From Candidatus Eiseniibacteriota bacterium (GTDB lineage Bacteria; Eisenbacteria; RBG-16-71-46; JABDJR01), in NCBI GenBank assembly GCA_963783375.1, contig CAWANH010000029.1, positions 1,472,001 through 1,536,000 of the forward strand: 64,000 bases of DNA. The letters are read 5' to 3'. This document shows, piece after piece, positions 29,482-56,011 of this stretch; positions within the stretch are counted from its first letter, which is position 1, and each line of letters opens with the position of its first letter. The position numbers were made by a program, and so were the translations under genes. The notes beneath the pieces are model-generated. The model worked only from the letters and a program-made list of their open reading frames with translations. It ran no database searches and was not told where the DNA came from.

Positions 29482-29502
29482 CGTGGCCGCCGGCTTCGCG
29501 GC

Positions 29503-30549: not shown

Positions 30550-31133
30550 CTAACGATATTGCGTCTTGATGCTTCCCCAGGTCGTCTTCTCGACGGGAAC
30601 CGGACTGAACGCCCGAACCAACCAGGTCCCGAACAGCGATGCTGCCGCGTCGTCTCCGGCGTTACCGCCAAGGCCCGCGAACCCGGAAGGGTTCTCGGGT
30701 ATGATCTGGAAGGAGTAGAGATCGTGAAACCCCGCGGACTGGGAGGATGCAAACCTGCCATAGTTGTCGTCGCTGCCGGCTCCGCAGTCCGAGGTGCACC
30801 CGAGGAGGGACATCAGGATCTGCACCGGGGCGTAGTTGCTGGTCAGGTTTCCGGGAGTCATTCCCCCGTTCGTCGCCAGCGCATCCAGCTCCTGCCCGGT
30901 CGCCACCCGGAAGCCCTCGAACTGACCGCCGGTTCCCAGTTCACTGACCACGAAATCGAAGGTGAGCCCGGCGGTCTCGGTGATATCGAGCCACTCGAGT
31001 CCGGAGCCCGAATCCTGGGTCAGAAGGCTGTCGCCCACGGCTTGCCAGTCGGCGGACTAATCGCGGCCGTGGCGGGACTGACCGGCAGGCTGGCGAGGGT
31101 GAGGAGAAGCAGGGCTAGGTAGAAACGTCTCAT
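30550..31133 (-). CDS. Secreted protein with C-terminal PVEKTTWGSIKTQYR motif (frameshift near 31055)
   Basis: ATG 31133 with signal peptide MRRFYLALLLLTLASLPVSPATA; continues SADWQAVGDSLLTQDSGSGLEWLDIT...GFRVATGQEL. Confidence 0.7.
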
Positions 31134-31406
31134 GGTGTTGGGGAATCCTTTTGGGTGCAGGTTGAGTCTCCGGGCGAGGTGATTGGGCTGGTGTCGCTGG
31201 CGCCCGGACCAAGCGACAGAATTTGTACTTTATCACACCTTGGTCGAGTCTATTAAAGCCAAATCGGGACGGCCGGACACTCCAAGAAGGGGGCCGCACC
31301 CGGGTTCTGTTGATCCCGAAAGCCCGTCCGGGCTCCCATGCCCCTCCGGTCGACCGCTTTCCGGCTCATCGGACCCGGGGCAGAGGCGCCCCCAGGCGCG
31401 GCGATG

Positions 31407-32244
31407 TCAGCGATGCTCGCGGTAGAGCCTCTTCAGCTCTCCCCGGGTGATCCGCTTTACCGGTGTGGTCTGGGCATCGTAACCCTCGCTGAACTCGATG
31501 GAGAAACATTCCCGGTAGCTGCCCGACGAACCCGGGATCGGATCGTCGACGATCTCGATGACGGGGTCGATCATCCCCGTCGTGCTCCCCGTTCTGGCCT
31601 CCCCACTGGCCATCAGGCCCGCAGAGGCGGCGGTGGACATGCTGACGAGGGTGATCGCATCCAACGGAATCTCCGTGGTCTCATCGATCGTGAACGCGTC
31701 GGAGGCCGGGTTTTTCCGTGCTGGAATTGTCGTCCACGTCCACTCTGTCGATAATGAGCACCCCCGCACCGATGACATGGAAACGGAACACGGAGTTGGC
31801 CACGGGAGAGGTGGCGCCCCGGGCCGAAGCCGAACCCGTCGCCGCTACACGGACGGGAACACCGGTCACGCCGGCGGGCGGGGACGCAGTCTCGACGATC
31901 CTGAACTGGAAATCTATAGCGACGGCGGCGGCTGGCTGGACGGAAGGACCGATCTCGGTAATGTCCCAGGCAAGCAGCAGAGTTCCCTCGGGGGGGCCCG
32001 GAGGGCCGAAAGCCACGCTCAGGTCCAGGTCGTAGCCGATCCCCGAAAGCGCTTAAGAGTGGGGCTCGGGAGCGTACGGATCGGCGCCGTCCAAGGATAC
32101 GCTCTCGTTTCCGGCCGGGAGCGAGATGGTCTCGTCCCAGAGGGCTTTGGAAAGGGAGAACTGCGCGACCGCCGAGACGGGAAGCAGGACGGAGCCTGCG
32201 GCGAGAATGAGAAGGTACGCGGCCATGCGCCGGACTTGTGCCAT
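31407..32244 (-). pseudogene. Secreted beta-sandwich-type protein with degenerate C-terminal motif TPVKRITRGELKRLY; in-frame TAA and one frameshift
   Basis: GGAGG RBS, ATG 32244, signal peptide; TAA at 32053-32055 is in frame with ORF 31681-32016; extra A in the run at 31711-31715 joins it to ORF 31407. Confidence 0.6.
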
Positions 32245-32584
32245 GAAATCCCTCCGGAAAGCGGGCACGACATCGACGGCCACTGTGCCCGCCTGCCCCG
32301 AGCGCCCTGTACAGTGCAACTCGAATTTCATAGGATCTACTCGGCTCTCTCAACCCGGCCGTTCCAGCCGGCGCCACGGAGGGCCCAGGAACCCCGGATC
32401 CTGGTCCGCCAGGGGCCAGGCCCGGGCGAACCCGCCCTCCGGAGGGAGAGGAGGCGGGTGAAGGCGGGGCCGGGGGCGAGGCCTCACCGGGGGGGGCGCC
32501 GGACCAGACCTCGCGGCCCGCTCGGGAGCCGGGGCGCCGACACATCCGGTCCGGGAATCGCGGTGAACGCGCCGGGTCCGTGCT

Positions 32585-33607
32585 CTACCTTCCCCCTTCG
32601 ATAACCCCGTCGAGAAAGGAGTGCACGCACTTCCCGAGTGCCTCGACATTGTATCCGCCTTCCTGGCAGATCAGCGTCGGAATGCCGAGCGACATGATAC
32701 GCCGGCCCACTTCGCGGTAGTCGTCCAGATCAAGCTTGAATCCACCGATTGGGTCGTTCCGGTAGGTGTCGAAGCCCGCGGCGATTATCAGGTAGGCCGG
32801 ACCGAACGCCGCGGCCGCTTCCAGGAACCGGTCGAGCGCGGAAAGGTAGGCTTCGCCACCGCTGCCCAACGGCAGAGGGAGGTTGAGATTGGTCCCCTCT
32901 CCCTGGCCGCGGCCCGTCTCCTCCGCATACCCCCAGAAGTACGGATACTCGACTTCCGGGTCGCCGTGAATCGAGGCGGTGAAGACCGACTTCTGCTCCT
33001 GGAAGAACTCCTGCGTCCCGTTCCCGTGGTGGTAGTCGATGTCGAGGATCGCGACCGTTCCGCGGGGGACGAGGTACTCGGCAGCGGTCGCGACGTTGTT
33101 GAAGTAGCAGTAGCCGCCGAAGACACGCGGCCCGGCATGGTGCCCTGACGGGCGACACAGCGAATAGACGACCCGCTCGGACCCGTCCGTGATGAGCCTT
33201 GCCCCCGTCAACGCGGTCTCTGCCGAGGCCCGGGCTACCTCGTAGGTCCTCTTCATGATGGGGGTAACCGCATCGGTGCACCAGATGCCGCCCCAGAGCG
33301 GTGAGTCGATCCGTTTTGGCAGCCGGGCCCCCTCTCCGGGGAAGAGATCCGGGTAGATCTCCTCCGTGTCGCTCTCGAGGCTCTCGGAGATCGTTCGGAT
33401 GAAATCATGGTACGGGTGGATGTTCGCGATCAGGCGTTCGGGAAACCTCTCGGCCGTGATGGTCTCAAAGCGATCGTCCTTGCCGAGGACGTCCTTGATG
33501 GCCGCCACTCGCATCGGTGTGTCCTTGACCTCGTACGACTCCCTGCCCAACTGAAATTTCCAATATGGGTTGTGAAGGCTGTCGTTGTATTTTTCAATGA
33601 CTTTCAT
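32585..33607 (-). CDS. HDAC-superfamily deacetylase (acetylpolyamine amidohydrolase-like)
   Basis: RPSGHHA, GGYCYFNN, DIDYHHGNGTQ, SIHGDP, GFD, QEGGY. Confidence 0.92.
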   Translation of the reverse strand: MKVIEKYNDSLHNPYWKFQLGRESYEVKDTPMRVAAIKDVLGKDDRFETITAERFPERLIANIHPYHDFIRTISESLESDTEEIYPDLFPGEGARLPKRIDSPLWGGIWCTDAVTPIMKRTYEVARASAETALTGARLITDGSERVVYSLCRPSGHHAGPRVFGGYCYFNNVATAAEYLVPRGTVAILDIDYHHGNGTQEFFQEQKSVFTASIHGDPEVEYPYFWGYAEETGRGQGEGTNLNLPLPLGSGGEAYLSALDRFLEAAAAFGPAYLIIAAGFDTYRNDPIGGFKLDLDDYREVGRRIMSLGIPTLICQEGGYNVEALGKCVHSFLDGVIEGGR

Positions 33608-35743
33608 GGATCTCCTTTCCCGTTCTCAGGATCTCGATCACCCGGTCATGGGGAATCGCCGGCGCAAACCGATCGCTTCTCCCCGACATGCCGCTCGAGC
33701 AGAAGATGGCATTCAGCGCCGCTTCCTCCGTCGCTTCGATCACAGCCTCGTAGATTGCGTCGATGTGGGAGTCCGAGATGCATTTCAAGTCGATGAATCT
33801 CGAAGCCTTGCTCACGCGAGGGCTACGAATGCCCGTGCTGAGCGCAAGGATGAACTCTCCGCTTGTCGATGCGGCATATGATCCGGCGCGACCGAGCCCA
33901 AGCGCGGCCCGTTTGGAAACACGGTTGAGCTGGCTCGCAAGCATCGGCACATCCGTAGCCACGATCACGATAGCCGATCCCTCGGCATTGACGCGCCGCC
34001 CCTTGCGATCGAAGACCATGTCGAGTTCCCGGCCGATGACCTTGCCGTCGATGGTCAGATTCCTCATCTTCCCGAGGTTGGAGAGAATCAGGACCCCGAG
34101 TGTGAATTGCCCTTCCGGAAGCTCCAGCGCGCGTGACGACGTGCCGATACCACCGGCGAAGTCGAAGGACATCATGCCGGCCCCGCTCCCACCGAGCCCT
34201 GCTCAATGGGGCCCGATGTCGCGGTCTGAATGGCGCGAACGGCGTCCTGTACCGTGGACGTACCGACTCGCACATCGTTGAGGAACGAGTCGTCCGCCTC
34301 TCCAACCACTGGAATTGCCACGTCCGTCTCGGTTCCAAGAGTCGGATACTTCCCGGCCAGATAGGCGATCACGCCGGAGTGAACCCGGCCCACGGAATGC
34401 GAGTTCGTGAGCAGGATCGGCGTCTCCAGCCATCCACACTCCTTCACCTGGTTCAGCCCGGCCATCTCACCGACACCGTTGAGAACGAACCCCCCGGCGA
34501 CCACCCGCTTGGTGAAGGTCCGGCCCGCGGACAGGATCGCGGTCACCCCGGTCCGCACCCGCGTCTTTTCAGACAACCCCGGTATCTGGACATCGTCCTC
34601 GATTCGGGTGACATGTCCTACGCGGACCCCCGGAATGTCGGTAATCGAATTGTTCAATCCCGCGCGCATTCGTCCCACCCGGATTCCGAGTTCCCGTAGC
34701 GTGGCCCGCTGGGGAGCGTGCTCCACATCCTCGGTCACCGCCTTCCGGACCGGCCGTATCGCCAAGCCATAGCGCCGGGCGGCCGAGCGGATGATCAAGC
34801 GCATGACCGCCTTGTAGTCGAGGCCCTTCTGTTTCGCCGCCACCATCAACGACGCGTTGGGGTGAAGGCTTGGAAGGGGGTTCAACTCGATGAAGAAGGG
34901 TTCCCCGCTCTCGTTGAGCCTTATGTCGACACGACCCACATCGGGACAGCTCATCGCTTCAAAGACGCGGCGCGCCATCTCGATGACTCTTGCCCCCTCC
35001 GCCTTCGTCGTCGACGCGGGACAGAGAACATGAACCGCTTCCGCGGCTTCTCCGCCTTGCTTCATCTCGTAGTCGTAGACGTTGAACTTCCCACCGCTTC
35101 GTTCCAGATCGAATGTGTGCTCGACGATGTCGAGAACCTGGCCCTGAAAGCTCTCGAGAATGGGGACGCTGAGCTCCTTCCCGTGAATGAACTCCTCGAC
35201 GACGAGTCCGGCGGGGTACCGGTCGAGCAGAATGCCGATTCTCAGTTGCGCGGTGCCCGGGTCCTCGACCACCGACTCCTGCGTGATCCCCTTGCTCGAA
35301 CCTTCCTTGTTGGGCTTGATCATCAAGGGGTATTGAAGGGTGTCGGGCAAGGGCTGGTCCTTGCGCGTCACCAGGATCCCCTGCGGCACCCGAATTCCAC
35401 GTGACGCAAGCACCGTCTTCGCGAGGTTCTTGTCGAGATTCAGGTGCAACAGTGATGCGTTCCCGCCCGTGAACGGAATACCGAGCTGCTCGTAGAGTCC
35501 CGGATAGAACGCTTCCCGTGAACTGCCGATCGTTCCCTCGGCGACATTGAAGATCAGGTCCGGCTCGCTCTGCAGAAGCCGGTCGACCACCTCGTTGGGC
35601 TTTCCGGACACTTCGACCGGCGTGACGGTGTGTCCCAGGGCGGAAATTGCCCCCGAAATCCGCTCGATATCCTCCGCGGTGAGATGCTCGGCCGTTTCCT
35701 CCGACATCACGATCCGCAGATTGTACGCAACAGTGATTCTCAT
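33594..35743 (-). CDS. Fusion of D-Ala-D-Ala-ligase-like ATP-grasp domain and DmpA/P1-family peptidase (one G missing at 34181-34184)
   Basis: ATP-grasp: FNVAEG, GIPFTG, KPNKEGSSKGI, VEEFIHGKE, RVDIR, IELNPLP; DmpA: NSITDIPGVRVGH, RTGVTAI, PVVGEADDSFLND, GSVGAG|AGMMSFDFAGGIGTSSR, GSAIVIVATD, EATEEA. Confidence 0.88.
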
Positions 35744-35828
35744 TCCCGCCCTTTCGCATCGCCGGGTCAGGTCCCGAACGAAACCCACGTGCAATTCGAA
35801 TGTTGCGTCGAGTATACATGAAACGTAG

Positions 35829-36139
35829 GCGCGCCCCGCCGAAGCGAGGACCTTCACCACCATGGTGACCGGCTTGGACAACACCCAGGTAACGTGGACC
35901 GTCGGCGCGGGCGACGTCGCCGGCGATATCCATGCCGCGGTCGATCCGCCGGGGAAGGAATCTCACTGCCGATCCTGACCGTCTTCACCCTCGACGCCAC
36001 CCAAATGAAGGAGTACCTGGTCGGACAGCCGGCCCGGATCGAGCGGGCCAACCCGCCAACCTGGAGCGTGATCATGGTCAACATCGGCTTCCGGGCGGAG
36101 AACGCCGTCATGGGTTCTCCGTGGCCCGGCGCCCCTTGA
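35829..36139 (+). pseudogene. 5'-truncated remnant with an Ig-like strand motif
   Basis: TFTTMVTGLDNTQVTWTV resembles bacterial Ig-like domains; preceded by an in-frame TAG at 35826; frame break before LPILTVFTLDATQMKEY... Confidence 0.35.
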
Positions 36140-36211: not shown

Positions 36212-39200
36212 TCAGATCTGGTCCTTGATGTGCCGGTACAATTTCTTCAGAAAGCCGAGGCCCTCCACCTCGGGGTATACCGCGTCGAATTCCGCTTCGT
36301 CCGAAGGCCAAGTCGCGCTGCCCAGAACAAACATGAAGTCGGGGAGCGTGATCAAACCGTCCCGACCGGACACCGCCACCAGGGCCTCCCCGTCCAGGAG
36401 CATCCCACGGCGGTCCTGGTTCTGGGACCCGACGAACAACCGGGCGATGGGCCGTCCGTCCTTCCCCGGAGGCGAGGACGCGAACGTGGAATCCAGGATC
36501 GCCCCCATGGCGCTCGCGGCTCCCCCGCCGGACGGCGCGTCGAGGATGTCGGGGACGATCCCCTCGGTATCGCGGCCGTAGACCTGTCGGGACCGGATCT
36601 CGAGGTACCTCTCCAGCACGGCGGCCCATTCCGGCCGGGTCAGGCTCTGGAGCACCCCCCGGGTGAAGAACAGGTGCGTCTTGGAGTGGAGGAACGGCCG
36701 GTGCTCGGCGGGGAGTGGGATGATCCCGCCCGCCTCCTGATCCCCGGTGGTGGGAGCGGGGGGGAGGGATGTCTCTTCCTTCCGCAGCACATCCAGCACG
36801 CTCGCGTCGAAGGGGAACTCCGACTCGAGAAACGGGGTGGCCGCCCTGCGTTCCAGGACCTCCCGGATCCGCCCGGGAACGTCGTACACCGGCGTCTTCA
36901 GGTCATAGAAGCCCACGTGGAGAACACCGCCCGCGGACGAGAGCTCGCTCTTGAAATACCGGGATGCGTCGAAGAGCCGGCGCATGTTCTCGCGCATGAG
37001 GACCAGGGTCGGAACGGCACTGCTGGGCGCGTTCTCCGGAACCGGGCTCACCACGTAGACGCGAGCCCCCCGAAGCGCGGCCCCGACGACCATTCCCGCC
37101 CAGTAGTCGCTGATCCAGAGCGAATCGAAGGTCAGAATGCAGCTCTCCCTGGGGGCCAGGTTGTAGCACATGGCCTTGAGGGCGGTGGCCGGCTTCGCTC
37201 CGTAGCCGGTGCGGTTGAACAGAAGCGTCACGGGCGTGGTCCAGCCGCGTTCCCGGAGGGCGCGGCAGCGGGATTCGTAGTCCGGCGGGACGGGGAGTTC
37301 CCGCAGGTATTCGGGGACCTCGTCGGGACGGAATCCCTGACTCAGACAGAGCTCGCGTGTGGAGGTCTTGAGCTTGACCAGGGCGGGTCCGCGGACGCGA
37401 AGACTCCGATCCTCCCAGGTGGCGCCGTTGTAGTGCTCCCCCACCCCCTTGCCGGTGAAGATAGCCTCGCCCGACCCGGGATCCGTCTCGAAGACGTCCC
37501 GAAAACACAACTTCCGGTGGTCCCGGTAGGGGGAATCGGCGGCGAAGGCCCGGTCGAAGGGGTTGGTCACGTTGACCTGGACCCGGATGAGCTCCTCCCG
37601 GCGTTCTTGACTCACTCCCCGGAACGCCGCCGACGCGTCCACGGTCTCGCGCAGGCGGCGTTGGGCGGAATCCAGCCGTCGCCGGAGGTCGTCGGGCCGG
37701 AGGTGGGGCTCGTCGGGCTGGTAGAGGTGCTCCAGATGGGTGATGATCTGTCGCGAGCGGTTGTCCTGGTAGTAGTTCTCGTCGAGAAAGAGCAGGAATT
37801 GGGGGAGCCGCTCCCTCTCTCCCGCGTCAAGCGCCACCACCGCTTCGCGGAAGGCCTCGATGTAGCCGTCGATCACCAGGTCCCAGCCGAAGAGGTCGGT
37901 CTTCCCGCTCTTCCAACGTCCGCGCAGGTCGTGAATGTGCAGGACGTGGTAGGTCTCGGTGTCCCGGATCATCCGCTTGAGCTCGAGGTGGAACTGCTCG
38001 TTGGGGAGGTATTCGATCGTGTTGGCGTCGGTGGAGACTCCCCCGGTCAGCGCCGTCGCCAGGGAGTCCCACTCCTCGGGGGTGTCGTACTGGGAGGGGC
38101 GGAGCCCGTAGTTGAGGGGCAGCCAGACCAGGCGGGACTGCTGCAGCCAGAAGATGATCGATTGCTTCCAACGCTTCCTGGACGCTTCCGCCACCCCGTT
38201 GATCCGGGCCACCGTACGCCGGAATGCCTCCCGGCACCACATCCGCCCCAGTCGGTTTCGCTCCGGATCCGGCCCGTTCAGGGCGGGGTAGGCGGCCAGG
38301 TACGCGTCGAAGTCCATCCGCGCCGCAAGCGCCAGCCCCCACACGTTGTGGGGCTTCTTGTTCTGACCGAACAACCGGTTGAAGGGGATAAGGATCCGCT
38401 TAAGGATCACCGACTCCGCCTCGCGAGCAATCGCCTCACCGGACGCGCCGTCCCCACCCACCGCAATCCGGAAGGCATGGGCCAGCTCCCGATGGTAGGC
38501 GGCGTCCTCCTCCGCAAAGGTGTGGCCCGGGCGGCGGATGTGATCCCGGTAGGCGCGGGCGTCCCCCTCGAATTCGTCCCCGCCCCCGAACCTGGGCGTG
38601 AGCAGCTCGTCCATCCACTTGACCGCGGTTTCCACCCGCTGCATGGAGGCATCGAAGCCCGCCGGCATCTCCGTAGCTACCAGAGCCCGGTCGGGCTTCG
38701 GCCGCTCCCCTTCGGGCAGCGACGCGTGGATCTCCCGCGGGCGGGTCATCCGGTAGGAGCGAAACGGACTGTTGAAGGTGAACCCCACCAGCACCTGCCG
38801 GTCCCAAGGGCGATAGTCCAGGCGGAGTTCATCTCCGTTCCGGAAGAGCCCTCCCCGCTTCAGGGCGATCTCGGCGCAGATGTCCGGGATGTACTCGTGA
38901 TCGGCAAAGCTATACTCGATCCCCGCCTTCACCCACGGAATCTTGAGGTAGGCGCCGATACCCAGGTCGAGAGAGCTCCCTACGGTGCCCACCACCCCTT
39001 CCATGGTCAGGTTGGCCAACCCCACCTGCGGAACGCTCGGAGTGGCGTTCGCAGCGATGAAGAGCCTGGACCTCTGGCGCTCGGCGTCGAAATCGTAGCC
39101 GCCCAGCGGACCCCAGGTGAGGGTCACACGCCGGGGTTGACCCATGGTGCGGGGGGTGTCGGGAAACGGGGCAGGGGGAGCCGCGGTCGCCGGGACGGCG

Positions 39201-39253
39201 GCGAACAGACTGAGCAGAGCCAGACCGAGGGGCCGAAGGCGCGTCCGTATCAC
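36212..39253 (-). CDS. Large secreted phospholipase D-superfamily protein
   Basis: Signal peptide; HRKLCFRD...FTGKGVGEHY...WEDRSLRVRGPA; second motif HSKTHLFF and VGSQNQDRRGMLLDGE. Confidence 0.75.
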   Translation of the reverse strand: MIRTRLRPLGLALLSLFAAVPATAAPPAPFPDTPRTMGQPRRVTLTWGPLGGYDFDAERQRSRLFIAANATPSVPQVGLANLTMEGVVGTVGSSLDLGIGAYLKIPWVKAGIEYSFADHEYIPDICAEIALKRGGLFRNGDELRLDYRPWDRQVLVGFTFNSPFRSYRMTRPREIHASLPEGERPKPDRALVATEMPAGFDASMQRVETAVKWMDELLTPRFGGGDEFEGDARAYRDHIRRPGHTFAEEDAAYHRELAHAFRIAVGGDGASGEAIAREAESVILKRILIPFNRLFGQNKKPHNVWGLALAARMDFDAYLAAYPALNGPDPERNRLGRMWCREAFRRTVARINGVAEASRKRWKQSIIFWLQQSRLVWLPLNYGLRPSQYDTPEEWDSLATALTGGVSTDANTIEYLPNEQFHLELKRMIRDTETYHVLHIHDLRGRWKSGKTDLFGWDLVIDGYIEAFREAVVALDAGERERLPQFLLFLDENYYQDNRSRQIITHLEHLYQPDEPHLRPDDLRRRLDSAQRRLRETVDASAAFRGVSQERREELIRVQVNVTNPFDRAFAADSPYRDHRKLCFRDVFETDPGSGEAIFTGKGVGEHYNGATWEDRSLRVRGPALVKLKTSTRELCLSQGFRPDEVPEYLRELPVPPDYESRCRALRERGWTTPVTLLFNRTGYGAKPATALKAMCYNLAPRESCILTFDSLWISDYWAGMVVGAALRGARVYVVSPVPENAPSSAVPTLVLMRENMRRLFDASRYFKSELSSAGGVLHVGFYDLKTPVYDVPGRIREVLERRAATPFLESEFPFDASVLDVLRKEETSLPPAPTTGDQEAGGIIPLPAEHRPFLHSKTHLFFTRGVLQSLTRPEWAAVLERYLEIRSRQVYGRDTEGIVPDILDAPSGGGAASAMGAILDSTFASSPPGKDGRPIARLFVGSQNQDRRGMLLDGEALVAVSGRDGLITLPDFMFVLGSATWPSDEAEFDAVYPEVEGLGFLKKLYRHIKDQI

Positions 39254-39298
39254 GGAACCCTCCTGGTCAAGGGATTCGCCCGATCCGGACCAACATCA

Positions 39299-46895: not shown

Positions 46896-46998
46896 ATCCC
46901 GGAATCCCCAACCCAAACCGCGCCACCGGCTTGCGGCGGGTCGCGAAGTTAGATAAGATGCTATAGATTAGGGACGTGACAGTAATCGGGGAGGCCAC

Positions 46999-47604
46999 AT
47001 GCCGAGGGAGCAGGATCATCTGAAGGACACGTCCGCGACCCCGGCCGACCTGGAGTCCACCGCCGTCCTCCTGGCCCAGGTGCGTGAGGGGGACGAGGCG
47101 GCCCGGAACCGGCTCGTTCGCCGATATCTCCCCATCCTGGAGCGCTGGGCCCGGGGACGACTCCCCGCCCGGGCCCGCGGTCTGGCCGACACCGACGATC
47201 TTGTGCAGGTAACCCTGCTCCGGGCGTTGGATAGGGTGAAGGACTTCGAACCCCGCCGGGAGGGCGCGTTCCTCGCCTACCTCCGGCGGATCCTTCGGAA
47301 CCAGATCCTGGACCATCTCCGACGGGCGGACCGGCGACCGAGCAACGAGTTGCTCGACGAACGCCTTCCCGCCGGGGACCCCTCCCCGCTGGAATCGATG
47401 GTGGGGGTGGAAACCCTGGCCGCCTACGAGGGCGCCCTGGACCGGCTATCCGATGAACAGCGGGAGGCGGTGGTCCTCAGGATCGAGTTCGGCTTCACCT
47501 ACGAGCAGATCGCCGAGGCCATCGGGAGCCCGTCCTGGAACGCGGCCCGCATGACGGTATCCCGGGCCCTGGTGCGGCTGGCGGAGTGCATGCATGCAGG
47601 ATGA
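46999..47604 (+). CDS. ECF sigma factor (kinase-associated)
   Basis: GGAGG RBS; DTDDLVQ, FLAYLRRILRNQILD, LSDEQREAVVLR.E.G.TYEQIA...RMTVSRAL. Confidence 0.92.
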   Translation: MPREQDHLKDTSATPADLESTAVLLAQVREGDEAARNRLVRRYLPILERWARGRLPARARGLADTDDLVQVTLLRALDRVKDFEPRREGAFLAYLRRILRNQILDHLRRADRRPSNELLDERLPAGDPSPLESMVGVETLAAYEGALDRLSDEQREAVVLRIEFGFTYEQIAEAIGSPSWNAARMTVSRALVRLAECMHAG

Positions 47605-49300
47605 ACACGATACCCTGACCCGGCTCGCCCGCTCGGTCTCGGACGGAGACGCCGTCGACTGGGAGAAGGAGCTTCTCGAGAACTCGGGGCTCCGGACGGT
47701 GGTCGAACGTCTCCGCACGGTCCAGAGAATCGGCGAGCTGTCGCAATCGCCCCCCGAGGTTCCGACCCCCGGTGGCCTCTCGCCGGAGGGCGTGATGGGA
47801 ACCATCCGGTTCCACGACCTTCCCACCTGGGGCCCCCTGACCCTGATCGAGCGGATCGGCCAGGGATCCTTCGGAGAGGTCTACCTGGCCCACGATCCCA
47901 CCCTGGACCGCGACGTCGCCCTGAAGCTGCGCAATCCGGGCGTGGTCAAGGACGACTCCACCTTTCTTCGCGAGGCCCGGCGTCTGGCCCGGATCCGCCA
48001 TCCCAACGTCCTCACCGTGTACGGGGCCGACCGCCACGAAGGCCGCGCCGGGCTGTGGTGCGATCTCATCCAGGGGAAGACGCTCGAGGCATCCCTGGCC
48101 GATCAGGGGTCCTTCAGCTCCCGCGAGACCGCCCTGATCGGGGTCGAACTCTGCCGGGCGCTGGCCGCGGTCCATTCCGCGGGCCTGGTGCACGGAGACG
48201 TGAAGACCCAGAACGTCATGCGGGAAGAGGGCGGGAAGATCGTCCTCATGGACTTCAGCTCGGCCATCGACCGGGATCCCGACCGGATCCCGGAAGAGGA
48301 GAAGGGCACCTCGGGAACCCCGCTCTTCATGGCCCCGGAGCTCTTCCACGGGGAAGCCATGACCCCGTCCTCCGACATCTATTCCCTGGGAGTCGTCCTC
48401 TACCGCCTGGTGAGCGGCCGCTACCCGGTGGAAGCCGAGAGCTTCGCGGAGCTTCGGGAAAAGCACGATCGGATGGAGACCACTCCCCTCCTCGACGTAC
48501 GCCCCGACCTGTCCTCCGGTTTCGTCCAGGTCGTGGCCCGGGCCATCGCCCGCGATCCCAAGGACCGGTACCGGAGCGCGGGGGAGATGGAACGCGCGCT
48601 TTGCCTGGCCCTCCACGGGGAGTCGGAGAACCGGCCCGAGTCGCGGTTTCCGCGGCTCCAGGTTTGGATCCTGGCCGCCGCCGCCACCGCTCTGGTAATC
48701 GCCGCCGCGGTCTTCGGCCCGCGCATGCTGGCCACGCCTTTCGAGGCCCGGGCGTCCCTGTTCAGAGTGGGTCCGAACGCCGACGAACGGCTGGTGGAAG
48801 GCGCAGCGATCGCTCCCGGCGACCAGCTCTTCCTCGAGATCGAGGGCTCGAAGCCCTGCAACGTCTACGTGGTGAACGAGGACGACGCCCGCCACGGCTA
48901 CCTGCTCTTTCCCCTGGATGGCCTGGACGTGGTCAACCCACTCCCCGCCGGGACGGCGGTCCGCCTCCCGGGTACGGTGGACGGCACGCCGTTCTACTGG
49001 GACGTGACCAGTTCCGGCGGGAGCGAGGTGCTCCTGGTGGTGGCTTCCCGGAAGCCGCTCCCCGATCTGGAGCGGGAGCTGGCCGGTCTGACCCCCGCGC
49101 AACCGGGGGGACCGGTCGAGATCGGGAAGCCGGAGGTAATCGACCGGCTCCGCGGCATCGGCGGGTTCTCCGCCCGCCGCTCCGAGGCCCCGGAGGGAGC
49201 GCCCCGCGTCGCCGACATCAACCGCCGGGTCTCGCTCAAGACCTCTCGCCATAGCGGCGTCTGGTCGTGGGAGATCCGTCTAGCGAACTCCGGGGCATAG
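47594..49300 (+). CDS. Membrane Hanks-type Ser/Thr kinase with a C-terminal extracytoplasmic DUF4384-like domain
   Basis: IGQGSFGEVY, VALK, HGDVKTQN, DFS, GTPLFMAPE, SDIYSLG; TM WILAAAATALVIAAAVFG; GD.L.LEI...VYVVNED...LLFP...GSEVLLVVASRKP. Confidence 0.92.
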   Translation: MQDEHDTLTRLARSVSDGDAVDWEKELLENSGLRTVVERLRTVQRIGELSQSPPEVPTPGGLSPEGVMGTIRFHDLPTWGPLTLIERIGQGSFGEVYLAHDPTLDRDVALKLRNPGVVKDDSTFLREARRLARIRHPNVLTVYGADRHEGRAGLWCDLIQGKTLEASLADQGSFSSRETALIGVELCRALAAVHSAGLVHGDVKTQNVMREEGGKIVLMDFSSAIDRDPDRIPEEEKGTSGTPLFMAPELFHGEAMTPSSDIYSLGVVLYRLVSGRYPVEAESFAELREKHDRMETTPLLDVRPDLSSGFVQVVARAIARDPKDRYRSAGEMERALCLALHGESENRPESRFPRLQVWILAAAATALVIAAAVFGPRMLATPFEARASLFRVGPNADERLVEGAAIAPGDQLFLEIEGSKPCNVYVVNEDDARHGYLLFPLDGLDVVNPLPAGTAVRLPGTVDGTPFYWDVTSSGGSEVLLVVASRKPLPDLERELAGLTPAQPGGPVEIGKPEVIDRLRGIGGFSARRSEAPEGAPRVADINRRVSLKTSRHSGVWSWEIRLANSGA

Positions 49301-49311
49301 AAGGCCCGGTG

Positions 49312-52300
49312 ATGCACGGATCCGGTCAACGAACGACGGGGGCGCCCCCAACGCGGCGCCCCCGGGGTTCGCGTCTCAGCCGCGTCGTGGTAGGCCTCGG
49401 GCTCCTGGCCTGGCTTCCAGCGCCGCTCGTCGCGGCGGCCGCTCCGCCGGCTTCCGGTCGGTCCGCGGGGATCCCGCGCTCCCCCGCATTCGAAGCCGTG
49501 TACGCCCTTCTCGACGCGAACCGCTACGAGGCGGCGGACAGCCTGGCCCGGTCGGCGCTCTCCCGCGCGGAGCGGGAGCACGGGCCGGAGTCCCTCGAGG
49601 CGGCGCGGGCGCTGGACCTGGTGGTGGACGTCATGGGGCGCCGCGGCGGGGACGCTTCCAAGGAGGCGGAGGACGCCCTGGGACGCGCCCTGGCGATCCG
49701 GAAACGGCTCCTCGATCCCGAGAATCCCGAGCTCGCCGCGTCCATGAGCGGGCTCGGTGACTTCTACGCGCGGGCCGAGAAGTACGACAAGGCCCGGCCG
49801 CTCCTGGAGGAGGCCCTGGCGATCCAGGAGAAGACGTTGCCGCCGGACTCCCCCCGGCTCGCGGCGAGCCTGGGACGCATGGGCCTCTTCCTCATCGAGA
49901 TCGCGGACTATCCGGCGGCCGTCGACGCCCTGGAGCGCCAGCAGGCCGCGCTCGAACTGGCCCCCGAGGTCGACGCCCGGGCCCTCGCCCAGAACGCCTA
50001 CAGCCTGGCCCGGGTGGAGCGGATGCTGGGACGCTACTCCGGCGCGGAGGAGGATTACCGCCGGAGCGTCCGGCTCACCCGGGAGAGCTACGGTCCCGAG
50101 AGCGCCGTCGTTGCGTGGCCGCTGAACGGCTTGGCCACCCTTCACGAGAACGTCGGCGAGTACGTCGAGGCGCGACGCCTCTACGAGCGCGCCCTGGCCA
50201 TCGCCGACAGCACCCTCGAGCCGAAGAACCCCTTCATCGCCTCGTGCCTCAACAACCTGGCCTACGTCCTCGTCAAGCTGGGCGACTACGACGAGGCCCG
50301 GAGCACTCTGGTCCGGGCCCTCGCCCTGGCCAGGGCCGCGCAGGAACCCGACCGGGCCCGGATCGCCGCCATTCTCAGCGTCCTCGCCGGGGTCCAGTCG
50401 AGACAGGGCAACATCTCCGAGGCGCTCTCGCTTCACGACGAAGCACTGGCTCTCCGGGAGAGCTTTCTCGGGCCCGACCATCCCTTCCTGGCCACCAACC
50501 TCCAGGGTCGCGGATTCTGTCTCCTGTGTGAGGGAAAGCCGGGAGAGGCCGAGGCGGATTTCCGCCGGGCGTTGCACATCCTGGAGGCACCCGTGACCGG
50601 GAGCTCGTTCGACGACCTCGCGGTGGCCGCCAAGGGCCTCGGCGACGCGCTCTCCGCCCAAGGGCACCTCGATGAGGCGGCGGAGGCCTATGCGAAGGCG
50701 CTGGATACCGCCCAATCGAAGCTCGGTGGGAACCATCCCCGCGTGGCCGAGGTCTGCTCGGCGATCTCGGCCCTCGACCGCACCCGTGGGAACCGGGAAG
50801 AAGCCCTGGCCATGGCCCTTCGAGCTGAAACCGTCTCCCGGGAGCACCTTCGCCTGACCGCGGCCTCCCTTCCCGAAACGGAAGCCCTGGCCTACGCCCG
50901 GGTGGCCCGCACCGGCCTGGACCAGGCGTTGGCGCTCGCGACGCAGGGCCTTGCCCCCGGGGCGCGAAGATCCGTGTGGGACGCGCTCGTCCGGGACCGC
51001 CTCACCGTTCTCGACGTCATGGCGGCGAGGCATCGGGCCCTGAGGGCGTCCCGTGACCCGGCGACCGCCGACAAGGCCCGCGAGCTGATGGACGCCAGCC
51101 GCGCCCTGGCCCATCTCCTGGTCAGCGGTCCGGAAGCGGGAGAAGGCGGGCGATACGGCGCGAAGCTGGAGGAGGCCACGAAGCGGCGCGAGGAGGCGGA
51201 GCGCGCGCTGGTGGAAACGAGTTCAGGGTACGGGCTGGATCCAGGCGGCGAGCCGGCCGGGTTCGCCGACGTCGCCGGCCGGGTTCCCGCGGGCGGCGCC
51301 CTTCTCGCCTATGCCCGGTACCGCGAGGCGGGCCCGCCGGCCGGGGAGTGCGTCCCCGGCGAGGGCGGCGCCTCCAGGTACCTGGCCTTCGTCCTCATCC
51401 CGGGTACCCGCAAGGTCGAGGTCATCCCGCTGGGCGCCGCGGCGGGTATCGACAGCCTGGTTGGCGAGTGGGCGGGGCAGGCGGGACGCCCGCCCGACGG
51501 GGAGCACGAGGACGCGCTTCGCGAGATCGGATCCCGGCTCCGGGCGACGGTCTGGGACCCGGTGGCCCCGTATCTCCGGGGAGCGGACCGCATCTATATC
51601 GTCCCCGACGGCGCTCTCGCCCTGGTCAACCTGGACGCGCTTCCCTCCGAAGCCTCGAGCTACCTGGCGGAAACCGCTCCCCTCTTCCAGTACCTCTCGG
51701 CCGAACGGGATCTGATCCCGGCGTCCCGGGGCACCCGGGCCAACACGGAGCTTCTGGCCATGGGCGCCCCGGACTTCGATGCCGGGAGCACGGGCCCGGT
51801 GAGCGGGTCCCTGTCCGCCACGGCCCCGGACTCGACCGGGCCGGGCCGGCTTCGCGGACACGGGCGGACGCTGCCGACCCTCAAGGGGGTCAGGTTTCGT
51901 CCCCTGCCCGCCACCGCCACCGAGGTGCGGACGATCGCCGGGGTCTGGCGGGATGTCGCGCGCCGCGGTTCGGCCGGCGCGGGGGGCGGCAAGCCGGTGG
52001 GGCCAGTGCGGCTCCTGACCGGTTCCGCGGCCACCGAGGCCGCCTTCAAGCTCGAGGCCCCCCGGGCCCGGGTGATTCACCTTGCCACCCACGGGTTCTT
52101 CCTCGACGGAAGCGGTACCCCCGGCGGAACGGGCACGCGAGGAATCGCCGGCCTCAGCCCCCGCCGGCCGGCTCCGGCACGGGCCGACAACCCCTTCCTG
52201 CTGGCCGGCCTGGCCATGGCCGGAGCGAACCACCGGGACGCAGACAAGCCGGGATCCGAGGACGGCATTCTCACCGCCCAGGAGATCGCCGTCTTGGACC

Positions 52301-52626
52301 TCACCGGGGCGGACTGGGTGGTTCTCTCCGCATGCGAGACGGGGGTGGGACGCATCAGGACGGGCGAAGGGGTCATGGGGCTCCGCCGCGCCTTCCAGAT
52401 CGCCGGCGCGCACGCCCTCGTCATGAGCCTCTGGGCGGTGGACGACGAGGCCGCCTCTGACTGGATGGAGTCCTTCTACCGCGCGCGGATCACCGGAGAA
52501 AAAGATGCCGCCGCCGCCGCCCGGGCGGCCACTCTCAACGCGCTGGCGCACACCAGGACGAAGACTGGAGGCGACAACCCGTTCTACTGGGGCGGGTTCA
52601 TCGCGGTCGGCGCGGGAGCGAAGTGA
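49312..52626 (+). CDS. Exported TPR-repeat CHAT (caspase-like, clan CD) protease
   Basis: N-terminal signal/anchor RLSRVVVGLGLLAWLPAPLVAAA; many kinesin-light-chain-type TPRs; IVPDGAL, HLATHGF (His), LSACETG (Cys), SLWAVDD, PFYWGGF. Confidence 0.93.
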   Translation: MHGSGQRTTGAPPTRRPRGSRLSRVVVGLGLLAWLPAPLVAAAAPPASGRSAGIPRSPAFEAVYALLDANRYEAADSLARSALSRAEREHGPESLEAARALDLVVDVMGRRGGDASKEAEDALGRALAIRKRLLDPENPELAASMSGLGDFYARAEKYDKARPLLEEALAIQEKTLPPDSPRLAASLGRMGLFLIEIADYPAAVDALERQQAALELAPEVDARALAQNAYSLARVERMLGRYSGAEEDYRRSVRLTRESYGPESAVVAWPLNGLATLHENVGEYVEARRLYERALAIADSTLEPKNPFIASCLNNLAYVLVKLGDYDEARSTLVRALALARAAQEPDRARIAAILSVLAGVQSRQGNISEALSLHDEALALRESFLGPDHPFLATNLQGRGFCLLCEGKPGEAEADFRRALHILEAPVTGSSFDDLAVAAKGLGDALSAQGHLDEAAEAYAKALDTAQSKLGGNHPRVAEVCSAISALDRTRGNREEALAMALRAETVSREHLRLTAASLPETEALAYARVARTGLDQALALATQGLAPGARRSVWDALVRDRLTVLDVMAARHRALRASRDPATADKARELMDASRALAHLLVSGPEAGEGGRYGAKLEEATKRREEAERALVETSSGYGLDPGGEPAGFADVAGRVPAGGALLAYARYREAGPPAGECVPGEGGASRYLAFVLIPGTRKVEVIPLGAAAGIDSLVGEWAGQAGRPPDGEHEDALREIGSRLRATVWDPVAPYLRGADRIYIVPDGALALVNLDALPSEASSYLAETAPLFQYLSAERDLIPASRGTRANTELLAMGAPDFDAGSTGPVSGSLSATAPDSTGPGRLRGHGRTLPTLKGVRFRPLPATATEVRTIAGVWRDVARRGSAGAGGGKPVGPVRLLTGSAATEAAFKLEAPRARVIHLATHGFFLDGSGTPGGTGTRGIAGLSPRRPAPARADNPFLLAGLAMAGANHRDADKPGSEDGILTAQEIAVLDLTGADWVVLSACETGVGRIRTGEGVMGLRRAFQIAGAHALVMSLWAVDDEAASDWMESFYRARITGEKDAAAAARAATLNALAHTRTKTGGDNPFYWGGFIAVGAGAK

Positions 52627-52663
52627 ACCGTCAGGACCGAGTAACGGAAAGGAGACCCAACCG

Positions 52664-53500
52664 ATGAAGCGCACAGGTTCGGAACGACACGGCAAGGCCG
52701 GGCGTCTCGCGGGAACGCTCTCGATGTGTCTGATCCTCTCCCTGCTGCTGACCCTGGGCAGCTGCAGCTGCAGCGACACTCCGGAGCACCTCGTCATCCA
52801 GGACGGCTCCCTCGCGACGTGGATGCCGACCGCCAACTCCTTCTCCAACGGAACCGCAGCGGATCCCAAGGGAACCGGCGACGACGGGAGACCCAACCGG
52901 CTCTTCCGTACCGGCGTGCTCATCCAGGTCGGCGACCACAGTGGTTCGGACATGTACTACGCGGGGTTGGAGTTCCGAAAGGACGGGGAGGCCATCTCGG
53001 CCCCCTCCTTCATGACCGGCAAGACCCTGGGTGCCTCCCGGTTCACGTGGATCAATATCGTCTCGGAGAATCCCCACGACCCCTGTGGGGACGCGAGCCG
53101 GGACACGATCCCCATGGATCCCGCGGACGTGGTCTCCCTCTACCCCTCCACCGTCGAGAGCAGTTGCGAGCTCGACCTGAGCGACCCGTGTCTGCGGAAT
53201 CGCATGCTTCATGCGTACATCCCACCCAAGGCCCTCATCACGTACTGGCAGGGAGAGGCAGGCTACGCGGTCTCGGTGAAACAGGGCGCAGGAAAAACCG
53301 GGTACCACGATGCGCAGGCCTTCACGTTCAACGACCCGTTCCGGGTGGAAGTGTATCGGGCGAACGACACCACCGGCGACCTGGAGCTCGTGCACACCTT
53401 CCGGCCCGGGGAGGTGGACCAGATCGTGGTCGTGGCGGATCCCAGCGGACCGGGCGGCGGCGACCAGCACGAACCAGCATGGCCGCCGATCCAGGGTTGA
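52664..53500 (+). CDS. Hypothetical lipoprotein
   Basis: AAGGAG RBS, ATG 52664; hydrophobic stretch ending LLTLGSCSC; no family recognised. Confidence 0.75.
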   Translation: MKRTGSERHGKAGRLAGTLSMCLILSLLLTLGSCSCSDTPEHLVIQDGSLATWMPTANSFSNGTAADPKGTGDDGRPNRLFRTGVLIQVGDHSGSDMYYAGLEFRKDGEAISAPSFMTGKTLGASRFTWINIVSENPHDPCGDASRDTIPMDPADVVSLYPSTVESSCELDLSDPCLRNRMLHAYIPPKALITYWQGEAGYAVSVKQGAGKTGYHDAQAFTFNDPFRVEVYRANDTTGDLELVHTFRPGEVDQIVVVADPSGPGGGDQHEPAWPPIQG

Positions 53501-53512
53501 GACGGAGGCCAA

Positions 53513-53525
53513 ACCCCCCGACACT
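53513..53525 (+). repeat. 13-bp direct repeat, copy 2
   Basis: ACCCCCCGACACT directly before the GGGAGG RBS of the S8 gene. Confidence 0.5.
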
Positions 53526-53539
53526 GGGAGGATGCACTC

Positions 53540-56011
53540 ATGCCACCTCACGGCGGACCGCACCACCCGGCCCGTTTCCACCAGTTCATCCTGAAGCTGA
53601 GGGAGCCGGATCCAAGCGGAGGGCAGCTCTCCGCGCAGGACTACGAGATGACTCCGGGAACCTCATCCCGTATCCATCACATCCTCTCCGGAACGCGCTA
53701 TACTCTCGGGAAGAGCTTTCCCAGGTACGGGGATCTCCTCCTGGCCAGGGGATACACGACCGCTCTGACTCCGGCAGGTCCTCCCGCCACTCTGGCCACC
53801 TTCTACCGGCTCTTTCTCGCCCCGACCTCCTCCCAGGACCTGCAGGCCATCCGCACGGCCCTGGAGGGTGTGGATCAGGTGGCTTACGTGATTCCGGCCC
53901 GGCCGTTCGGCCCCCCTCCCTCTCCCCCCCCCAGCTCCGGCGACGATCTGGAGCCTTCCCAGGGCTATCTGGATCCGGCCACCGACGGCGGGATCGATGC
54001 TCGGTCGGCCTGGGAAGTGGTCGGGGGCAAGGGAGCGGGAGTGGCACTGGGCGTGGTGGACGGCGCCTACGATCCCGATCACCGGGACCTTCCGCCTGCG
54101 GAAACGCTCGAGTCCCTCTATGAGGACACCGGTCTCTCGATGGAGCATGGGACCGAGGTGCTGGGCATGCTCTGCGGGAGCCGGGATGGAGTGGGGGTGA
54201 CCGGCATCGCGTACGACATCGGCCATATCTACTTCGCCAACTACGTGGACATCCCTCCCGGTTCGGCTCACTGCTTCGATGCTACCGGAGCCGCCGTTCC
54301 CTGCGCCTTCGAGTCGGCCGTGGGGGACGAGTACGACCGGCTCCTCCGCGAGGCCCGGATCATGACGGCCCTGGACGACCTGGCCTTGAAGCTACGGGAT
54401 TGGCCCGATGGTCCGGTCGTCATGCTCCTCGAAGTCACGGCGTACGAGGATCCCGACTCGTACACGTTGGAACGCCCGGTAGAGTTGAATCCGGACATCC
54501 GGACGTATCTGAGGGCGCTGGCCGAGACGGACGGGATCACCGTGATCGAGCCGGCGGGCAACGACTCGAAGCGCCTCGACGACGTCGACGTGCCGAAGAG
54601 CGACGACGGCTCCTCCGCGAAGCTCTGGGGAGCGGATATGGACGACGCCTCCGACTCCCTCGCCGTCATGGTCGGGGCGGGAAAAGTCCCGCCCGAAGAC
54701 CTTTCCGCGCCTGGGACCTGGAGGACCCACGAGGCCATCACCAGCTACGGGACGCGCGTGAACTGCCAGGGTTGGGGCAACAAGGTGGTGACCGCGAGCA
54801 CCGACCTGACCGGGACCATCATCGACGGCAGCGCCTACACGGACGGCTTCAGCGGCACCTCCTCGGCCAGCGCCATGGTGGCCGGGGTCGCGGTGTGCCT
54901 CCAGGGGGCGCGGCTGGGAGCGGGCATGGATCCGCTCTCCCCGGTCGAGCTGCGTGCCCTGCTCGCCGACCCCGACTACGGGAGCCCCCAGCCGGAACTG
55001 GACGCCAGCTCCTACCCCATCGGCCCCCTACCCGATCTCGGGAAGCTTCTCACCCTGTGCTCCGACATCTTCCTCCGGGATCACGTCGGAGACACCGGGG
55101 AGGAGCCGTCATCGGGAACCGGGGTGTGCTGGAGCCCTGACATCATCCTGCGGACGGTGCGCGAGTTCGATCCGGAGGCGGCGTTCGGCGCCGGGGCCTG
55201 GGAGGACGGGTATCTCTGCCAGGATGCGGCCGCCGGCAGCGACAACTACGTCTACATCCGGCTGAGCAATCGCGGGACCTACCCGGACGACGCCCGGATC
55301 ACCGTGTACTGGGCCGACCCCTCGACGTTCCTCTACCCCGACGACTGGCACGAGATCGGGGTGCTGGAGGCGGAGGCGATTCTCCAGGACGAGCAGCGGG
55401 TCATCCCCGATCCCCTGGTCTGGGAGGCCGGGGATCTACCCGCGGCCGGGCACTACTGCCTGATCGCGCTGGCCGAGACCGATTCGGACAAGGTGGACGT
55501 GGCCGGCGCACTGTCCGCGGGCGAGAAGTTCGTCATGCTCGTCCGGGAGCAGAACAACCTGTGCTTCCGGAACATCAAGGTGGTGGAGGCGGCTCCGGGC
55601 TCCGAAACGTCCTCGGCCACGTTCTTCCTGCGGGGGTTGCCGGGGAGATACTTCCCGGATCCCGACAACCGCCACCGCCTGGTGATCCGATCGAGGCTCC
55701 CCCGGGGCGCCGTCGTCCACGTGGACCACACGAGGCTCGAAGTCCTTGGACCCCACCTCGCGGCGGACGGCATCGGAGCACCGCCCCAGCGCGGGGACCG
55801 GCCCCGTGAGCCCCTGATGCTGCAGGGCCTCCTCCCCCACCTCATCGATGGGATCGTTCTCGAGCCGGACCAGAAGGTCCCGGTCACCGTGCGCGTGGCC
55901 CTCCCCCCCCGGACCCCACCCGGACGTTACCTTGTGGCCGCCGAGCAGTACTGGCGGGGGAAGCTCCTGGGCCGGGTGAATTTCGAGGTTCGCGTCCGCC
56001 CGACGGCGTGA
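53540..56011 (+). CDS. S8 (subtilisin-like) serine peptidase with C-terminal beta-sandwich domains
   Basis: VVDGAY (Asp), EHGTEVLG (His), EPAGN (oxyanion Asn), FSGTSSASA (Ser); C-terminal IFLRD..GDTG.EP...WSPDI...NYVYIRLSNRG...GHYCLIA. Confidence 0.9.
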   Translation: MPPHGGPHHPARFHQFILKLREPDPSGGQLSAQDYEMTPGTSSRIHHILSGTRYTLGKSFPRYGDLLLARGYTTALTPAGPPATLATFYRLFLAPTSSQDLQAIRTALEGVDQVAYVIPARPFGPPPSPPPSSGDDLEPSQGYLDPATDGGIDARSAWEVVGGKGAGVALGVVDGAYDPDHRDLPPAETLESLYEDTGLSMEHGTEVLGMLCGSRDGVGVTGIAYDIGHIYFANYVDIPPGSAHCFDATGAAVPCAFESAVGDEYDRLLREARIMTALDDLALKLRDWPDGPVVMLLEVTAYEDPDSYTLERPVELNPDIRTYLRALAETDGITVIEPAGNDSKRLDDVDVPKSDDGSSAKLWGADMDDASDSLAVMVGAGKVPPEDLSAPGTWRTHEAITSYGTRVNCQGWGNKVVTASTDLTGTIIDGSAYTDGFSGTSSASAMVAGVAVCLQGARLGAGMDPLSPVELRALLADPDYGSPQPELDASSYPIGPLPDLGKLLTLCSDIFLRDHVGDTGEEPSSGTGVCWSPDIILRTVREFDPEAAFGAGAWEDGYLCQDAAAGSDNYVYIRLSNRGTYPDDARITVYWADPSTFLYPDDWHEIGVLEAEAILQDEQRVIPDPLVWEAGDLPAAGHYCLIALAETDSDKVDVAGALSAGEKFVMLVREQNNLCFRNIKVVEAAPGSETSSATFFLRGLPGRYFPDPDNRHRLVIRSRLPRGAVVHVDHTRLEVLGPHLAADGIGAPPQRGDRPREPLMLQGLLPHLIDGIVLEPDQKVPVTVRVALPPRTPPGRYLVAAEQYWRGKLLGRVNFEVRVRPTA

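Follow-up and report, generated by a model that had tools for sequence, protein, structure and literature searches.

Control of a sigma factor across a membrane by a TPR-CHAT protease (tetratricopeptide repeats, TPR, joined to a CHAT domain) has recently been described in the DdvA–DdvS system of Myxococcus xanthus, in which DdvA, a periplasmic TPR-CHAT protein with a His-Cys dyad, controls a sigma factor of the extracytoplasmic function (ECF) class across the inner membrane, through a loop cleavage that is only proposed (PMC11506125). The same paper points out that separase, a relative of TPR-CHAT proteins, cuts after Arg in unstructured motifs. Here we analyse a cassette of five genes, at positions 46999–56011 of a 64,000-nt stretch of DNA (hereafter, the window; G+C 70%) from Candidatus Eiseniibacteriota (assembly GCA_963783375.1, contig CAWANH010000029.1, positions 1,472,001–1,536,000 of the forward strand), which encode, in this order, an ECF sigma factor, a receptor Ser/Thr kinase, a TPR-CHAT protease, a small lipoprotein-like protein and an S8 subtilase. 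DdvA–DdvS is the closest known system, on the published account of it, and the cassette is likely, by analogy, a split variant of this type of cross-membrane signalling. We propose, with a probability of roughly 55%, that the genes form an ECF sigma module of the kinase-linked type, and that the TPR-CHAT encoded with it acts directly on the DUF4384 outer domain of the kinase, via an R-G-I-G-G loop that the two proteins share, the kinase then switching on the sigma factor.

In common with DdvA–DdvS as described, the locus combines a predicted periplasmic TPR-CHAT with an invariant His-Cys dyad, an ECF sigma factor, and an unstructured loop on a membrane-spanning partner. The differences concern the way in which these parts are connected: in DdvA the TPR-CHAT is fused via a transmembrane helix to a zinc anti-sigma domain, whereas here it is a separate protein, predicted to be exported; the membrane partner is a Ser/Thr kinase carrying DUF4384, with no anti-sigma domain found in its N-terminus; and the putative target loop of the kinase has a look-alike within the protease. 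Moreover, the regulon of DdvA–DdvS is a defence island next to it (CRISPR-Cas and CBASS, cyclic-oligonucleotide-based anti-phage signalling), while the neighbours are ordinary here, and PADLOC returned only generic kinase-domain and TPR hits.

The module is also similar to sigma factors linked to kinases. In ECF43 (EcfP–PknT and EcfK–PknS; PMC13147305) and in the planctomycete ECF62-type pairs (PMC7826278), as in our locus, a single-pass Hanks kinase is encoded at position +1, extended at its N-terminus and with an outer sensor domain that varies, and there is no recognisable anti-sigma gene. In ECF43, however, region 2.2 has, in place of DxxD, uncharged residues that include a conserved phospho-Thr, QTTA (PMC13147305), whereas the sigma factor of the window retains D-T-D-D, and for this reason its sequence marks it as no ECF43-type switch; a charge-switch site as in EcfP/PknT, a pair which an initial annotation of this DNA had evoked, is therefore not what we find. 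For the kinase-linked groups ECF43, ECF59–62, ECF217, ECF267 and ECF283, the searchable text of these two papers describes no CHAT partner. A combination of ECF sigma factor, subtilase and TPR-CHAT in one neighbourhood, as here, is reported for ECF54 of Actinobacteria, with no classical anti-sigma, no kinase, and a CarboxypepD_reg-like protein at +1 (PMC7826278, citing Huang et al. 2015); our locus differs by the kinase at +1, by a small protein without Pfam family, and by its host, which belongs to Candidatus Eiseniibacteriota.

Two further systems share single elements with the locus. In the type III-E craspase, Csx29, a TPR-CHAT protein, cuts the linker of Csx30, which controls the ECF-like sigma factor RpoE, and one group of Csx30 C-terminal domains is DUF4384 (bioRxiv 10.1101/2022.08.17.504292). 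That system is cytoplasmic, RNA-guided and bound to Cas7-11, whereas the CHAT protein here has an export signal, and a scan of 13 neighbouring open reading frames (ORFs), which cover part of the window, detected no cas family. This parallel, and the one with SAVED-CHAT loci, both drawn in the initial annotation, are to be considered analogies only. In the ECF25 anti-sigmas (PMC7826278), DUF4384 forms, similarly to our case, the portion outside the cytoplasm of a regulator that crosses the membrane once and acts on an ECF sigma factor, but the cytoplasmic part of this regulator is a zinc anti-sigma domain instead of a kinase, and the accessible text of that paper mentions no CHAT partner for ECF25. 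In the open-access literature that we searched, no publication was found on a module composed of sigma factor, DUF4384-kinase and exported CHAT.

All five ORFs are co-oriented on the plus strand, with a pattern of G+C at the three codon positions (GC1/GC2/GC3) that is that of coding frames; the kinase gene overlaps the sigma gene by 11 nt, and the subsequent gaps are of 8, 37 and 39 nt. This compact arrangement, the single transmembrane span and DUF4384 of the kinase, the export signal and dyad of the TPR-CHAT, and the triad of the subtilase had been noticed in the initial annotation and were all confirmed, as detailed below. The kinase gene (47594–49300, 568 aa) was assigned by Pfam and by alignments, with matches to Pkinase (aa 84–327, 4.4e-40) and DUF4384 (aa 407–488, 48812–49057, 1.6e-10). 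The protein is composed of an N-terminal extension (aa 1–79), the Hanks domain, one hydrophobic stretch compatible with a transmembrane span (aa 355–376, 48656–48721), the DUF4384 outer domain, which would thus be placed outside the membrane, and a C-terminal loop-helix-strand. An occurrence of DUF4384 as C-terminal domain of one kinase family is also recorded in a kinase atlas. The AlphaFold2 model of the outer domain, built from 16 sequences, has a mean predicted local distance difference test (pLDDT) score of 77.9 and consists of a beta-sandwich (pLDDT 81–96 in blocks 1–120), followed by a stretch of low pLDDT, after which the chain returns to the fold with a helix and a strand. A Foldseek comparison of this model with the Protein Data Bank (PDB) gave generic Ig-like sandwiches only, none of which reached E 1e-3.

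The TPR-CHAT gene (49309–52626, with the start at ATG 49309 or 49312) matches TPR_12 (3e-82) and CHAT (6.4e-58) in Pfam. Its product begins with a basic stretch, a hydrophobic run and A-A-A-P (signal-like segment at about 49309–49446), and a signal-like hydrophobic N-terminal segment was present in 12/12 CHAT orthologues, on which basis we predict export to the periplasm. The catalytic dyad, His927 (52090–52092) and Cys1008 (52333–52335; both numbered from 49312), is unchanged in all of the 10 orthologues compared. When the CHAT profile was searched against PDB sequences, the 60 matches listed were all TPR proteins.

What is newly recognised, by comparing the two proteins, is that the kinase outer domain and an insertion of the CHAT domain share a co-varying R-G-I-G-G loop. 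On the kinase side the motif, L-R-G-I-G-G in the window (aa 519–524, 49148–49165), lies between the DUF4384 sandwich and the conserved last strand, within the part of the model where the pLDDT falls below 50 (model residues 126–142 and 146–156). It occurs as L-R-G-[IV]-G-G in 16/16 aligned kinases, with the Arg and a Gly invariant, and among the best 150 representatives of the outer domain the last 110 residues contain it in a loose form in 141 and in a strict form in 103. On the protease side the alignments place the same motif, R-G-I-A-G in the window (52138–52152), in the insertion that separates the catalytic His from the catalytic Cys. The pattern R-[GSA]-[IVLM]-[GA]-[GA] is matched by 8 of the 10 CHAT loops, the other two showing RGVGR (L034) and a gap after the Arg (L011); a paralogous CHAT protein of the same genome, unlinked to sigma or kinase genes, has a short His-to-Cys stretch from which the motif is absent. 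In the genome of the window, the background frequency of the pattern is 1.1e-4 per residue. We also observed five DUF4384-type kinases (L144, L147, L148, L156 and L162, four of them from family f9) that have neither sigma nor CHAT gene adjoining and keep the motif.

The likeness of the cognate loops extends beyond the core, and in several loci unusual residues recur at equal positions in both partners. This co-variation was measured on 31 unique cognate pairs (of 32) by shuffling the partners 20,000 times, a procedure which ignores the relatedness of the loci. From the Arg to position +11, 185 identities were counted against a shuffled mean of 146.8, and from +5 to +11, 62 against 38.4, with 0/20,000 shuffles reaching the observed value in either case; at the control positions −3 to −1, the identities were 15 against 13.9 (p 0.40). 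The two loops of the window are not a recent copy of each other at the DNA level, because only 25/45 of their bases are identical.

The second line of evidence is the linkage of the genes. When metagenomes were scanned with the sigma alignment, more than 351 relatives were confirmed, and in the best 80 loci, which were kept, the kinase gene starts directly after the sigma gene wherever enough DNA follows. The outer domains of these sigma-linked kinases were DUF4384 in 12 cases, TPR in 6, FG-GAP in 3 and a PD40 propeller in 1. Of the DUF4384 loci, 8 out of 12 continue for 3 kb or more downstream, and these contain a CHAT domain in 6 cases, in one of which an ffh–rpsP pair is inserted ahead of it, and the start of a TPR region before the contig end in 2; no CHAT was found in the 10 long loci whose outer domain is of the FG-GAP, PD40 or TPR type, 9 of which were covered by Pfam. 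In the phylum we examined, with profiles made from our own alignments, 40 of about 130 listed places, taken non-randomly from the upper and middle parts of the list, of which 39 were evaluable. The sigma gene lies upstream of the kinase in 34/39 loci, and a TPR-CHAT gene adjoins the kinase in 22/39, downstream on the same strand in 20, convergent in 1 and upstream in 1. Among close relatives of this sigma family, then, the tie is exclusive, with CHAT accompanying DUF4384-type kinases only, and the co-occurrence of these genes elsewhere, for which the initial annotation had called, is found.

A direct coupling of protease and receptor is supported by these data, because linkage of the CHAT and DUF4384 genes together with a shared co-varying loop is what would be expected of a protease-substrate or docking pair. 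In the mechanism that we propose, the CHAT protein would either process itself at its loop copy or be latched by this copy as by a pseudo-substrate; binding of a signal to the TPR array would free the active site, and the freed protease would dock on the loop of the kinase or clip it, the bond behind the Arg being the likeliest site. This would alter the kinase activity in the cytoplasm, the kinase would phosphorylate the sigma factor, and pair-specific variants of the motif could keep apart up to five paralogous circuits per genome. Of the claim, made in the initial annotation, that CHAT cuts the kinase ectodomain, the tie between CHAT and DUF4384 is borne out by linkage and by the co-varying loop, while the cutting itself, as well as the phosphorylation of the sigma factor, is a step that we infer. 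A complex prediction with residues 295–1104 of the TPR-CHAT and the kinase outer domain scored 0.08, against a mark of 0.32, which is informative neither way.

Several facts weigh against this proposal. The relatedness of the loci inflates shuffling tests of this kind; the pairwise likeness of two unrelated proteins is, for its part, hard to obtain by shared descent alone. No CHAT gene was detected within about 6.5 kb of the kinase in 17 of the 39 evaluable loci, and the motif is kept in 16/18 kinases without a detected adjoining CHAT; therefore, it may serve something besides the adjoining protease, or the partner may often be unlinked. Two genomes without an adjoining CHAT, G202 and G098, do have an unlinked CHAT with a matching loop, which in G202 reads RGIGGT in both proteins. 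In addition, the sigma factor keeps the acidic patch of region 2.2, and therefore a requirement for its phosphorylation is not evident from the sequence, and the coupling of protease and receptor leaves the roles of the subtilase and of the lipoprotein unexplained.

A further point of this kind is the position of the co-variation, which is confined to the C-terminal side of the Arg and absent at −3 to −1. Judged from the alignments, this position would suit a P4–P1 site of caspase type no better than a peptide used for docking, and it leads to the main rival of our proposal, namely docking without cutting. The exported TPR-CHAT would be in this case a co-receptor, which takes up the kinase loop, a short linear peptide, in its TPR array or in its substrate groove; its own loop copy would be a competing intramolecular ligand, ligand-driven docking or dimerisation would cluster and activate the kinases, and the true substrate would be elsewhere. 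A co-varying stretch of about 11 residues is longer than typical protease subsites and otherwise placed, and TPR arrays are known to bind peptides. The periplasmic TPR-CHAT of DdvA is, in addition, reported to be dimeric (PMC11506125). The invariance of the His-Cys dyad in 10/10 orthologues indicates, on the contrary, that catalysis matters, and separase cuts at sites of this type, with an Arg in an unstructured loop (PMC11506125), for which reasons we regard docking alone as rather unlikely.

The packing of the five genes as one operon, and the loci in which the kinase has no adjoining CHAT, could also mean that the protease belongs to the output of the circuit and not to its input. CHAT, lipoprotein and S8 subtilase would be members of the sigma regulon, acting as effectors of envelope remodelling or defence, and the motif would be a tag by which some third factor, for instance an enzyme of processing or sorting common to both, recognises the two proteins. 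A single third factor would not explain, however, why each paralogous circuit has its own variant of the motif, on which the two members of the pair agree, nor does this view account easily for a CHAT that is linked, within this sigma family, to DUF4384-type kinases only; we consider it improbable.

The sigma factor and the N-terminus of the kinase are the parts on which a further alternative depends. The sigma gene (46999–47604, 201 aa), assigned by Pfam, NCBIfam and alignments, matches Sigma70_r2 (1.8e-16) and r4_2 (2.3e-8), and its best NCBIfam match is TIGR02984, a planctomycete subfamily, with 97 bits, under the cut-off of that model. Region 2.2 reads A-D-T-D-D-L-V-Q (47182–47217), and in 114 unique sigma factors D64 is conserved at 95%, D66 at 88% and D67 at 100%, figures that are biased by the fact that the search pattern for part of the set held this stretch. 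Conserved Ser/Thr residues are T21, T65, S129 (in the linker, within 47374–47394) and S179, T65 being itself contained in the pattern with which part of the set was picked. An acidic region 2.2 of this type, the overlap of sigma and kinase genes, the conservation of the first 55 residues of the kinase (L..A...D....W) in 14/14 aligned kinases, and the model put forward for DdvA (PMC11506125) would all be consistent with an anti-sigma-like sequestration, in which the N-terminal extension of the kinase holds the sigma factor, proteolysis of the outer domain is followed by intramembrane proteolysis that sets the sigma factor free, as the DdvA model has it, and phosphorylation is secondary. The extension has, however, no sequence likeness to anti-sigma domains in Pfam or PDB (E up to 10) and no Cys/His zinc motif, and the catalytic motifs of the Hanks domain are intact in all orthologues: VALK, HGD (HRD in L014), DFS or DFG, and APE. 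Sequestration is a reading that we hold to be improbable, and coupling of the protease to the receptor via the shared loop remains the one that we prefer.

If this coupling operates, the module would be the first case in which the DdvA mechanism, with a proteolytic step that remains a proposal in the published account, is split over separate proteins. The result would bear on the way in which kinase-linked ECF sigma factors receive signals from outside the membrane, and on the activation of bacterial CHAT proteases outside CRISPR systems, and the genome data offer a concrete candidate pair at residue level, Arg520 of the kinase and Arg943 of the protease. It would also apply widely, because many proteins have this outer domain: its profile, run on 1.84 billion representatives, matched 3154 clusters with the E cut-off at 1e-3, 1273 with 1e-10 and 694 with 1e-30, and it was found in 84/206 genomes of the phylum (50/121 of the high-quality ones), with up to five copies per genome. 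A wider and only tentative interpretation, which we would sooner doubt than rely on, is that of a large family of protease-gated receptor kinases, in which CHAT carries the cognate loop as an address and as an autoinhibitory pseudo-substrate, a periplasmic signal frees the protease, which clips the receptor, and variants of the loop insulate the circuits; the signal bound by the TPR could be, for instance, a protein of a phage, a predator or a competitor, and in this lineage the circuit would also command a cytoplasmic subtilase.

The two remaining genes have a much narrower distribution. The small lipoprotein-like protein (52664–53500, 278 aa) has no Pfam family, and its lipobox-position sequence is L-G-S-C in the window, F-S-G-C in L011 and R-P-L-W-C, which is not a standard lipobox, in L014. 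A longer ORF from 52505 was considered as the lipoprotein gene and rejected. The profile of the protein gave nothing against PDB sequences at E up to 1, its AlphaFold2 model (7 sequences) had a mean pLDDT of 50.9, too poor for a fold search, and 5 proteins of the family were found among 5.8 billion clusters. The S8 subtilase (53540–56011, 823 aa) matches Peptidase_S8 weakly (1.7e-7), and only weak matches to subtilisins were obtained with its profile among PDB sequences. Nevertheless, Asp174 (54059), His203 (54146), Ser441 (54860) and the oxyanion Asn341 are invariant in 4/4 orthologues; the N-terminus is propeptide-like, and a C-terminal part of about 300 aa matches no family. No signal peptide was recognised in 4/4 orthologues, with just 13 in-frame codons upstream, and the gene has its own GGGAGGA ribosome-binding site and ATG; because of the missing signal peptide and the ribosome-binding site, the subtilase is predicted to be cytoplasmic, or exported by an unrecognised route. 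In the window, in L012 and in L011, though not in L014, the lipoprotein and S8 genes are in one reading frame, separated by a TGA and 13 codons (53498–53540). A second signal-less S8 paralogue is encoded in G013 outside any cassette (L013:12223–14574), beside FlgD_ig-tailed proteins and a PD40-type kinase.

The search for the subtilase in 41 related genomes, followed by tblastn on the matching stretches, revealed the complete cassette, with unchanged gene order, in three genomes: G002, which is of the same genus, G006, of the same family, and G013, of another family. The lipoprotein profile was found in 5 of the 206 phylum genomes, the fifth being G054, where sigma, kinase, CHAT and lipoprotein genes run up to the contig end, and neither lipoprotein nor S8 was present in any of the 80 metagenome loci. 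The suggestion of the initial annotation, that these two proteins are general variable modules for the envelope, finds no support in such a restricted distribution and in a subtilase devoid of export signal; rather, they are a lineage-restricted addition, moving together with the CHAT portion of the cassette. In G001 and G003, the two other genomes of the genus, the SSF transporter gene comes right after the trmB-like gene, with no cassette between them, and therefore the 9-kb cassette represents a clean insertion or deletion within the genus.

The comparison of the window (G000) with L012 of G002 gave a synonymous divergence (dS) of 0.15–0.20 in the sigma gene, in the kinase gene and in the first 100 codons of CHAT, and of 0.58–1.04 in the remaining part of CHAT, in the lipoprotein gene and in S8, which is a three- to five-fold jump. 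This points to a recombination breakpoint that would lie inside the CHAT gene. Positive selection was considered as the origin of the divergence of CHAT, lipoprotein and S8 and was rejected, the ratio of non-synonymous to synonymous divergence (dN/dS) being 0.18–0.37 throughout the cassette while dS jumps.

Other members of the sigma family were met during the survey of loci. The same sigma family occurs with FG-GAP, PD40-propeller or TPR kinases in L055, L068, L075, L056, L092, L094, L095 and L098–L100, and the loci with TPR-type kinases are convergent with a CarboxypepD_reg/TonB-type outer-membrane protein. Two proteins (L048:7034–10618 and L070:3–1739) unite in one polypeptide an ECF sigma factor of this family with a protein kinase domain, TPR repeats and an ATPase of AAA/NB-ARC-like type, and they are, as far as their domains tell, kinase-STAND-sigma fusions, in which STAND stands for signal transduction ATPase with numerous domains.

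Upstream of the sigma gene, no ECF-type promoter motif was found in the related loci in which it was searched. A TAGACT/TAGATT hexamer is present 5' of the sigma gene in 10/89 loci, compared to about 0.9 expected, as estimated from base composition, and in the window it lies within 46950–46991; the 12-mer CAGTAATCGGGG (window 46980–46991) is also present 5' of the sigma gene in L014. A Pfam scan of the neighbours showed that the cassette is flanked upstream by an SNF2 helicase and a trmB-like methyltransferase, and downstream by an SSF transporter and an HD protein. Elsewhere in the window, an ORF of 1027 aa without Pfam family is located on the minus strand (36212–39295), and the minus-strand ORFs in the region 29500–36000 have a lower third-position G+C than the remainder.

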